Sequence record: NC_054935.2 | DNA: 64,000 nucleotides | Reading direction: 5' to 3' (one strand) | Source of the DNA: Escherichia phage YUEEL01 | Shown: positions 23,846 through 25,185 of the stretch, piece after piece | Layout of the letters: every line of letters begins with the position of its first letter | Position numbering within the stretch: position 1 is the first letter of the stretch | Position numbers and translations under genes: made by a program | Notes under the pieces: model-generated | Told to the model about the DNA's origin: nothing | Database searches by the model: none | What the model saw: only the letters and a program-made list of their open reading frames with translations

Positions 23846-24406
23846 ATGATTAATAAAATTGTGCATGAAATGGCTTTAAACGGAGATTCATATAAAATAT
23901 CTGCCGTAGTTGAAAATTTCATACTTAATAAAGTAAAAGAATATTTCACTGATTGTTCAGTTAGTTATCAAGAAAAAATGGTTTTAACCGATGATACTGA
24001 AAAATCAAATAATTTGTTTTGTTCTAATTTTATAACTAAGAAGCGTACTAGAAGATTTGATATTGTTATTTCTCGCAACGGTAAAAAGCATATAATTGAA
24101 ATTAAACACCAAGTTGGTGGAGGTACAGCTATTGATTCGGTTGGAATATATTTAGAAGATAAAGAGAAATTAAAAGAATACACAAAAACTGAAAACCCTG
24201 TGTCATTGATGATATTAGATTTTTTGCCATGCGGATATTATCCACGTAATAAATGGACAAAAAGAGAATCATTTACTGATAATCCAACCATCCAAGCAAG
24301 GTTTAATGAATATGCTAAATCACAAAACGTGTTAGTATTACTATCAAATACATATGATGAAGAATTATATAATTCGTTTTTTGCTGCAATAAATGAGAGA
24401 ATATAA
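23846..24406 (+). CDS. hypothetical protein with a PD-(D/E)xK nuclease-like core, translationally coupled to dam
   Basis: 186 aa; [21 protein letters not shown] gives D72 ... E85-x-K87 in a strand-loop-strand pattern; GAGGATGATATA SD; stop overlaps the dam start (TAATG). Confidence 0.5.
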
Positions 24407-25185
24407 TGCTAGGAGCTATCGCGTATACAGGTAATAAACAGTCATTATTACCTGAACTTAAGCCTCATTTTCCAAAATATGACAGATTCGTGGATTTATT
24501 TTGTGGAGGTTTATCAGTGTCTTTGAACGTCAATGGTCCTGTATTGGCCAATGATATTCAAGAACCAATTATTGAAATGTATAAGCGTCTTATTAATGTA
24601 TCATGGGATGACGTTTTAAAAGTAATAAAGCAATACAAACTATCAAAAACATCAAAAGAAGAGTTTTTGAAATTACGTGAAGATTATAATAAAACTAGAG
24701 ATCCTCTTTTACTTTATGTTCTTCATTTTCACGGGTTTAGTAATATGATTCGTATAAACGATAAAGGAAATTTTACTACTCCGTTTGGAAAAAGAACTAT
24801 AAACAAAAATAGTGAAAAACGCTTTAATCACTTTAAACAAAATTGTGATAAAATAATCTTTAGTTCATTGCATTTTAAAGATGTCAAAATTCTAGACGGC
24901 GATTTTGTATATGTGGACCCTCCATATCTTATAACAGTTGCTGATTATAATAAATTTTGGTCAGAAGAAGAAGAAAAAGACCTTTTAAATCTTTTAGATT
25001 CTTTAAATGACAGAGGAATAAAATTTGGACTGTCGAATGTTTTAGAGCATCACGGAAAGGAAAACACTCTTCTTAAAGAATGGTCTAAAAAATATAATGT
25101 TAAGCATCTTAATAAAAAATACGTCTTTAACATATATCATTCCAAAGAAAAGAATGGAACTGATGAAGTATATATTTTTAATTAA
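24406..25185 (+). CDS. dam: Dam DNA adenine (GATC) N6-methyltransferase
   Basis: 259 aa [25 protein letters not shown]... with DPPY catalytic motif; near-identical to T4/T2 Dam. Confidence 0.93.

Follow-up and report, generated by a model that had tools for sequence, protein, structure and literature searches.

A nuclease-fold gene inherited together with dam in T-even phages: a candidate restriction-modification-like cassette

Bacterial endonucleases such as DpnII and MboI are accompanied by methylases of the D12/Dam class (DpnM, M.MboI) that act on the same GATC site, forming type II restriction-modification (R-M) systems. A lytic virus can carry a pair of this kind as well: in the chlorovirus system R.CviAI/M.CviAI, a GATC endonuclease is paired with a Dam-like methylase, and the methylase guards the viral DNA. 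In T-even phages, the Dam methylase of T4 is usually treated as solitary, and its biological role has, to our knowledge, remained unclear. Here we analyzed a 64,000-nucleotide stretch of Escherichia phage YUEEL01 (NC_054935.2; hereafter the window), which has the same dam as T4 but carries directly upstream of it an open reading frame (ORF) for a nuclease-fold protein of 186 amino acids (aa). The present data indicate that the solitude of T4 Dam is the exception.

We propose, with a probability of roughly 85%, that the 186-aa protein serves Dam as its nuclease-fold partner within an R-M-like cassette. The pair would thus belong to a known kind of system, type II R-M, as an uncharacterised representative found in unusual surroundings. 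The narrower proposal of a compact type II module whose enzyme is DpnII-like and cuts GATC lacking adenine methylation stands at even odds in our judgement, its GATC specificity and its block by methylation being read from the partner methylase and from weak homology to DpnII. Unlike DpnII and MboI, the phage pair has the endonuclease gene before the methylase gene, with overlapping codons, and its carrier is a lytic phage with glucosylated hydroxymethylcytosine (glucosyl-hmC) in its DNA, whereas theirs is a bacterium. The arrangement would be the same as that of R.CviAI/M.CviAI, a lytic virus with a GATC endonuclease and a Dam-like methylase. The chlorovirus enzymes, however, attack unmethylated host nuclear DNA whereas the enterobacterial hosts of the phage are Dam-methylated, and the DNA of T-even phages carries a further kind of modification.

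The gene pair and its joint inheritance

The nuclease-like gene (the R half; 23846-24406, plus strand) starts with ATG and encodes 186 aa with a predicted PD-(D/E)XK restriction-endonuclease fold. It is followed by dam (the M half; 24406-25185, plus strand), encoding a D12-class GATC N6-adenine methyltransferase of 259 aa, and gene 56 is next downstream. The dam product was assigned by Pfam PF02086 (E 6.5e-51) and TIGR00571 (E 1.4e-69), and the PADLOC orphan-methylase model oMTase PDLC03722 (E 1.6e-183) identifies the gene as the dam of T4 and T2. The coordinates bear out the TAATG overlap described in the initial annotation of this DNA: at 24404-24408 (plus strand), the last A of the nuclease-gene stop codon TAA (24404-24406) is the first base of the dam ATG. 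Judging from this sequence, the overlap appears to couple translation of R to that of M.

The initial annotation had also regarded the gene and dam as one expression unit, and we found the pair to be organised and inherited together. A D12/Dam methylase gene lies directly downstream, with an overlap of 0-35 nucleotides (nt), in all nine divergent lineages of the nuclease gene; the lineages read for context were KPV15 and the metagenomic P0013, P0011, P0002, P0006, P0005, P0009 and P0004. The stop/start overlap is lost only in a T2 variant, where a frameshift leaves a 13-nt gap. Pairwise identities of the nucleases correlate with those of the methylases (r = 0.91, 36 pairs), although the nuclease diverges faster (41% identity to KPV15, as against 62% for the methylase). 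No genome with the nuclease gene but without the methylase gene was found among the phage records and metagenomic contigs, 186 phage records being judged from match coverage and annotated features and the contigs being inspected directly. Methylase-only genomes do exist (T4, G8, PD112, KarlGJung and G29), and they go back to at least three independent lesions. This asymmetry, in which the methylase occurs alone and the nuclease does not, looks typical of R-M systems. A separate observation concerns the P0013 and P0011 cassettes, whose methylases are 70% identical but whose nucleases are only 31% identical; these nucleases have N-terminal extensions (225-227 aa), and their genes overlap the methylase gene by 20-35 nt. 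The contrast could mean that the nuclease was swapped, or that it evolves very fast.

The 186-aa protein matches phrog_8706 (function unknown) from end to end (E 6e-116). Among phage records, 152 contain the gene at full length, and about 150 isolates have it in near-identical form. Nonsynonymous change in the gene (pN 0.26-0.5) was far below synonymous change (pS 0.65-0.88), pointing to purifying selection, and because the synonymous sites are saturated the corresponding dN/dS values are upper bounds only. By these criteria the ORF is a genuine gene and did not arise by chance. The GenBank record of phage Shinka already names the product “putative DpnII restriction endonuclease”. Literature searches on the ORF, its accessions and its PHROG found nothing.

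Fold, catalytic residues and relation to DpnII

An AlphaFold (AF2) model of the 186-aa protein was built from seven homologues (predicted local distance difference test, pLDDT, 79; predicted template modelling score, pTM, 0.79). Its elements follow the order helix, three strands, helices, strand, helix, strand, helix, and include the alpha-beta-beta-beta-alpha-beta core of the PD-(D/E)XK superfamily, so that the prediction gives a fold of the restriction-endonuclease type and not a non-nuclease fold. In a Foldseek search the best TM-score was obtained with MunI (0.59/0.56) and EcoRI was also listed, the best structural matches being orthodox type IIP enzymes; DpnI and MutH were absent from the top structural matches. 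MunI and EcoRI belong to the alpha class of type IIP enzymes and produce 4-nt 5' overhangs, and the phage protein has about the size and shape of MunI. At 12% sequence identity, however, there is no detectable homology to them, and these enzymes recognise CAATTG and GAATTC and have partner methylases of another kind than the phage Dam.

In a nine-member alignment reaching down to 29% identity, E23, D72, E85, K87, H88, Q89, G93-S98 and D125 are invariant. The catalytic core spans 24059-24106 (plus strand), with D72 (24059-24061) on strand beta2 (residues 67-77) and with E85 (24098-24100) and K87 (24104-24106) on strand beta3 (residues 80-88); an invariant segment comes next. The D72/E85/K87 core was numbered correctly in the initial annotation, and it is borne out by the invariance of these residues in the family and by their place on the predicted strands beta2 and beta3. 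A further invariant acidic residue, E23 (codon 23912-23914, plus strand), lies in helix 1 and aligns with the invariant E152 of DpnII. The 186-aa protein is predicted to be a single-domain PD-(D/E)XK fold with an intact E23/D72/E85/K87 site. Its family is small: a profile search of 1.84 billion proteins gave 11 matches, all of them small phage-type proteins or spurious repeats, and a second, word-indexed protein search added no further members. No PDB chain was similar by sequence in either single-sequence or profile searches.

Among known families, DpnII comes closest. Pfam DpnII (PF04556) is the top family for the window protein (E 0.0045, 16.8 bits) and matches four of the nine family members (best E 8.3e-5), and the PADLOC model REase_II PDLC03548 covers the DpnII-matching region in both the window protein (E 9e-5) and the best member (E 5e-6). 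For a direct comparison we used 15 PF04556 proteins from databases, one of them named DpnII of S. pneumoniae, which were retrieved with a DpnII sequence that served as bait only. Alignment of the phage family to these proteins by hhalign (P 6.5e-4, probability 27.6%, 91 columns) paired E23 with E152, D72 with D201 and E85 with E214, together with a GG(S/T) turn, and the shared core motifs read E...RFD(I/F)VI...(I/L)IE(I/V)x...GG(S/T). Of the DpnII-family invariants, E152, D201 and E214 have counterparts in the phage family, N216 is paired with K87, and no lysine stands opposite K224. From these alignments, DpnII is the closest sequence family and plausibly a distant relative, and the 186-aa protein does not appear to be a member of the DpnII family. 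Beside the plasmid-borne methylases most closely related to the phage Dam, no DpnII-type endonuclease was found, only AlwI- and FokI-type partners, and tblastn of the 186-aa protein against plasmids gave no match.

Distribution, mobility and loss of the cassette

The promoter, the nuclease-like gene and dam form a cassette of about 1.43 kb (23758-25184, plus strand) that comes and goes as a single block; the small minus-strand ORF that follows gene 61 lies to its left and the gene 56 promoter to its right. The match of RB14-type phages to the window stops at 23757 and picks up again at ATTGCTT (about 25185), and in RB69 gene 61 is followed by the small ORF and then gene 56, with nothing between. 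Both genes are present in 144 of 469 Tequatrovirus records, and none of the 469 has the nuclease gene alone. The locus is empty, so that gene 61, the small ORF and gene 56 are direct neighbours, in about 290 of these records, and of T4 type (dam with a remnant of the nuclease gene) in about 30, both figures being extrapolated from evenly spaced rows of the survey. About four in five Tequatrovirus dam genes are preceded by the nuclease-like gene. We also observed that the metagenomic relative with the P0002 gene has an extra ORF of 93 aa (4010-4291; no Pfam match) separating the nuclease gene from the small minus-strand ORF, a sign of further variation at this locus.

In Jiaodavirus, the cassette was found in 6 of 151 records and at a different locus, beside denB/ndd-like genes. 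There the early promoter GTTTACTTT...TGATACTATA is duplicated, with one copy at each end of the cassette, and the empty site of JD18 has a single copy of it. The cassette of the window opens with an early promoter and is followed by the gene 56 promoter. Shuffling of gene cassettes through promoter/stem-loop (PeSL) elements has been reported for T4-type phages (PMC2839356, PMC4122927), and a cassette bounded by copies of an early promoter matches the published pattern. The cassette would be gained and lost by such PeSL-type recombination between conserved early promoters.

The promoter at the cassette start is of the T4 early type (23791-23820, plus strand), with GTTTAC at 23791-23796, TG at 23812-23813 and TATTAT at 23815-23820, and a Shine-Dalgarno sequence GAGGA (23834-23838, plus strand) lies 7-8 nt before the nuclease-gene ATG; both signals had been noted in the initial annotation and were found again here. 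A promoter scan reports TTTACT-17-TATTAT with TG at this position. The generic scan gave 11 sites where 12.5 are expected from shuffles, without enrichment in this AT-rich region, and because it is no richer than the shuffles, the promoter call rests on conservation: the element GTTTAC...TGnTATnAT is found upstream of the nuclease gene in 8 of 10 lineages. An inverted repeat (23800-23837, plus strand), formed by CTCAGC (23800-23805) and GCTGAG (23831-23836), flanks the -10 element and overlaps the ribosome-binding site, and seems to resemble the PeSL arrangement; inverted repeats of a similar kind also surround the -10 element upstream of the P0013 and P0002 genes.

Could the nuclease itself move the cassette? 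A selfish, homing-type endonuclease would cut one specific site in the “empty” 61/56 alleles of relatives that co-infect the cell, and repair would copy the cassette into them, with Dam as a passenger or as a mask for the site in the genome of the carrier. The clean presence/absence polymorphism between conserved genes is like that of the T4 seg and mob genes, and SegF, a homing endonuclease, is encoded at the neighbouring locus in T4. A single homing site, however, is difficult to reconcile with the unrelated second locus of the Jiaodavirus cassette, and with a duplicated early promoter at the ends of that cassette, recombination through promoters accounts for the mobility and needs no nuclease (PMC2839356). 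In addition, the linkage to the methylase is kept down to 29% identity with correlated divergence, the family is neither GIY-YIG nor HNH, and its best structural matches are the type IIP enzymes described above. We therefore regard a homing enzyme as unlikely.

The initial annotation could not say whether T4 has an ORF here. T2 has the gene, T4 has a remnant of it, and RB14 and RB69 have neither gene. T4 lacks the ORF because of a deletion of about 548 bp that left a scar: it joins the two copies of the 8-bp direct repeat ATCACAAA (left copy, 23771-23778; right copy, 24319-24326; both plus strand), the promoter being removed too. The sequence from the right copy to dam survives in T4, and codons 159-179 of the nuclease gene remain upstream of dam. 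By this reading of the sequences, the “orphan” state of T4 dam derives from the paired state by deletion between the ATCACAAA repeats, and the nuclease gene alone would be lost through such short-repeat deletions in addition to loss of the whole cassette. In KarlGJung, an independent deletion of 371 bp lies between the copies of another repeat, GATGATAT (23837-23844 and 24208-24215, plus strand), and in G29 the nuclease gene has a frameshift. In the T2 variant (181 aa), a single-base difference within a run of Ts changes the C-terminal residues, and the ORF ends 13 nt before dam. The T2 dam entry of 1988 (M22342.1) contains the whole nuclease-like ORF (about 82-627), unannotated, as only the methylase was annotated. 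Promoter-like elements are also visible within the 3' part of the nuclease gene (24254-24283 and 24350-24372), for example TGGACA-18-GATAAT and a TATAAT at about 24363. T4 retains this part, which may drive T4 dam after loss of the cassette promoter.

Possible targets, DNA modification and neighbouring sequences

How such a pair would work in an infected cell can be outlined as follows. The 186-aa protein would supply the endonuclease of a compact, R-M-like cassette of type II, carried by a lytic phage with glucosyl-hmC DNA. It would act as a homodimer on GATC, the site methylated by its partner Dam, and N6-methyladenine would block it as it does DpnII and MboI. Dam and the glucosylation of hmC would together protect the phage's own DNA, and the nuclease would cut DNA that lacks Dam marks. 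Candidate targets are the DNA of Dam-negative hosts and co-infecting phages without the cassette, since most Tequatrovirus have no dam; the latter would be the most obvious source of unmethylated DNA.

Several points weigh against this proposal. The known hosts of the carriers (E. coli, Shigella, Yersinia, Salmonella and Klebsiella) are all Dam-positive, so their DNA would be immune to a DpnII-like enzyme and a target is hard to name. The phage DNA is probably protected already by glucosyl-hmC, and protection by Dam is perhaps unneeded; about 60% of Tequatrovirus live without the cassette. As for the similarity to DpnII, the score of the window protein (16.8 bits) is below the Pfam gathering cut-off of 23, and the hhalign probability is low. 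The phage protein, with 186 residues as against about 288 in DpnII (the family has about 280-290 aa, with an N-terminal and a C-terminal catalytic domain), aligns to DpnII residues 124-226 only, which are the catalytic core, and an extra N-terminal region of about 140 residues in the DpnII model has no counterpart. It also has ExK where DpnII has an invariant ExN and a downstream lysine. Because only the core is matched, the similarity may reflect the core shared by the superfamily, and it says little about specificity.

The initial annotation had left the choice between an R-M pair and a DpnI-like enzyme. A DpnI-like, methyl-directed nuclease would cut the Dam-methylated, cytosine-containing host chromosome, with the phage Dam topping up the marks and glucosyl-hmC shielding the phage. 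Such an enzyme would have a ready target, as the carriers infect enterobacteria, which are Dam-positive, and the window phage and KPV15 own genes for hmC and glucosylation with which to protect themselves. Yet DpnI uses a winged-helix methyl-sensing domain (PMC4081073), whereas the model of the 186-aa protein is a single domain without a winged helix; DpnI is not among its top structural matches, and no PDB chain matches it by sequence. With host Dam available, moreover, strict linkage to a phage dam would be unneeded, but nuclease-only genomes were not seen. A DpnII-like enzyme fits better than a DpnI-like one because the sole sequence-family signal is to the methylation-sensitive DpnII and because methylase-only but no nuclease-only genomes exist. 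Of the two proposals in the initial annotation, the R-M pair is thus favoured, and the DpnI-like enzyme, for which we found no positive support, is improbable.

A nuclease that uses Dam marks for nicking or repair, as MutH does, or a nuclease-fold protein whose main role is to drive or regulate dam translation, would avoid the difficulty of naming a restriction target in Dam-positive hosts. MutH is a precedent for Dam-directed strand nicking by a protein with a restriction-endonuclease fold, and dam translation is physically coupled to the nuclease ORF in all lineages. MutH was, however, missing from the best structural matches. Were the role purely regulatory, E23, D72, E85 and K87 would not stay invariant. 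In T4, T2 and KarlGJung, dam is kept without the overlap. Neither form of this explanation seems probable to us. That the gene is a decaying, now functionless relic of an ancestral R-M acquisition is very unlikely: although it has repeatedly been lost or broken (the T4-type and KarlGJung deletions, the G29 frameshift and the C-terminal frameshift of T2) and most relatives lack it, about 150 isolates carry an intact, near-identical copy, nonsynonymous change in the gene is well below the synonymous, and its catalytic residues are invariant across lineages at 29-63% identity.

If the R-M-like cassette does encode an active GATC endonuclease, T2 and about 150 sequenced relatives would carry a complete R-M system in a hypermodified lytic genome. 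This would raise the question of what such a system attacks and give a handle on why T-even phages methylate GATC, and the nuclease would represent a new, very small sequence family among type II enzymes. A more specific and quite speculative extension is that the cassette serves as a weapon between T-even phages, the nuclease cutting unmethylated GAT(hm)C in the DNA of dam-less co-infecting relatives, which make up about 60% of Tequatrovirus, while Dam marks self. If this were true, the cassette and the markers linked to it would have an advantage in mixed infections, and the pressure could add to the extreme GATC depletion across Tevenvirinae, cassette-free lineages included. The nuclease would then be the first restriction enzyme acting on hmC or glucosylated phage DNA for competition between phages, and the T-even Dam, long without a clear role, would gain a function.

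No other 4-bp palindrome is avoided as strongly as GATC in the window (78 observed, about 212 expected; ratio 0.37), and the same holds for other carriers of the cassette (ratios 0.08-0.36). We considered this depletion as a footprint of the nuclease and rejected it, as the cassette-free RB69, which has neither dam nor the nuclease gene at the locus, is equally depleted (ratio 0.12); the depletion is therefore general in such phages and not tied to the cassette.

As for DNA modification, the window encodes an alpha-glucosyltransferase (alpha-gt), a gene 42-type dCMP hydroxymethylase and a second glycosyltransferase (4439-5641, 16516-17256, 17247-18095). A glycosyltransferase of the TAGT family with 282 aa, the size found in T2 and T6, occupies the place where T4 has beta-gt, which suggests glucosylation of the T2/T6 type rather than the T4 type. 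The carrier KPV15 has genes for a dCTPase, a dCMP hydroxymethylase and a glucosyltransferase. Its hydroxymethylase gene (30288-31021) is represented by an annotated fragment of 118 aa followed by a separate hypothetical ORF, a split that would be either a frameshift or a sequencing error. An argument that a carrier with unmodified cytosine and fully methylated GATC would speak against a DpnI-like enzyme, built on the phages KP15 and KP27 (PMC3620542), was dropped, because both phages lack the nuclease gene and KPV15 carries hmC genes.

Over 2 kb, the local sequence is nearly identical (99.7-99.8%) to that of the Tequatrovirus phages ECO07P4, ZN18 and ACG-C40. The primase gene 61 (22521-23549) lies upstream of the small ORF that separates it from the cassette (23546-23746, minus strand; 66 aa, phrog_2024, function unknown). 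The product of this small ORF looks hydrophobic and membrane-like. The ORF is conserved in RB14 and RB69 (RB32ORF030w, RB69ORF029w) and in T4 DNA, and the T4 RefSeq record has no coding sequence there. Inside its 5' part, the plus strand has a terminator-like hairpin (23712-23731) with a T run, which could terminate gene 61 transcripts.

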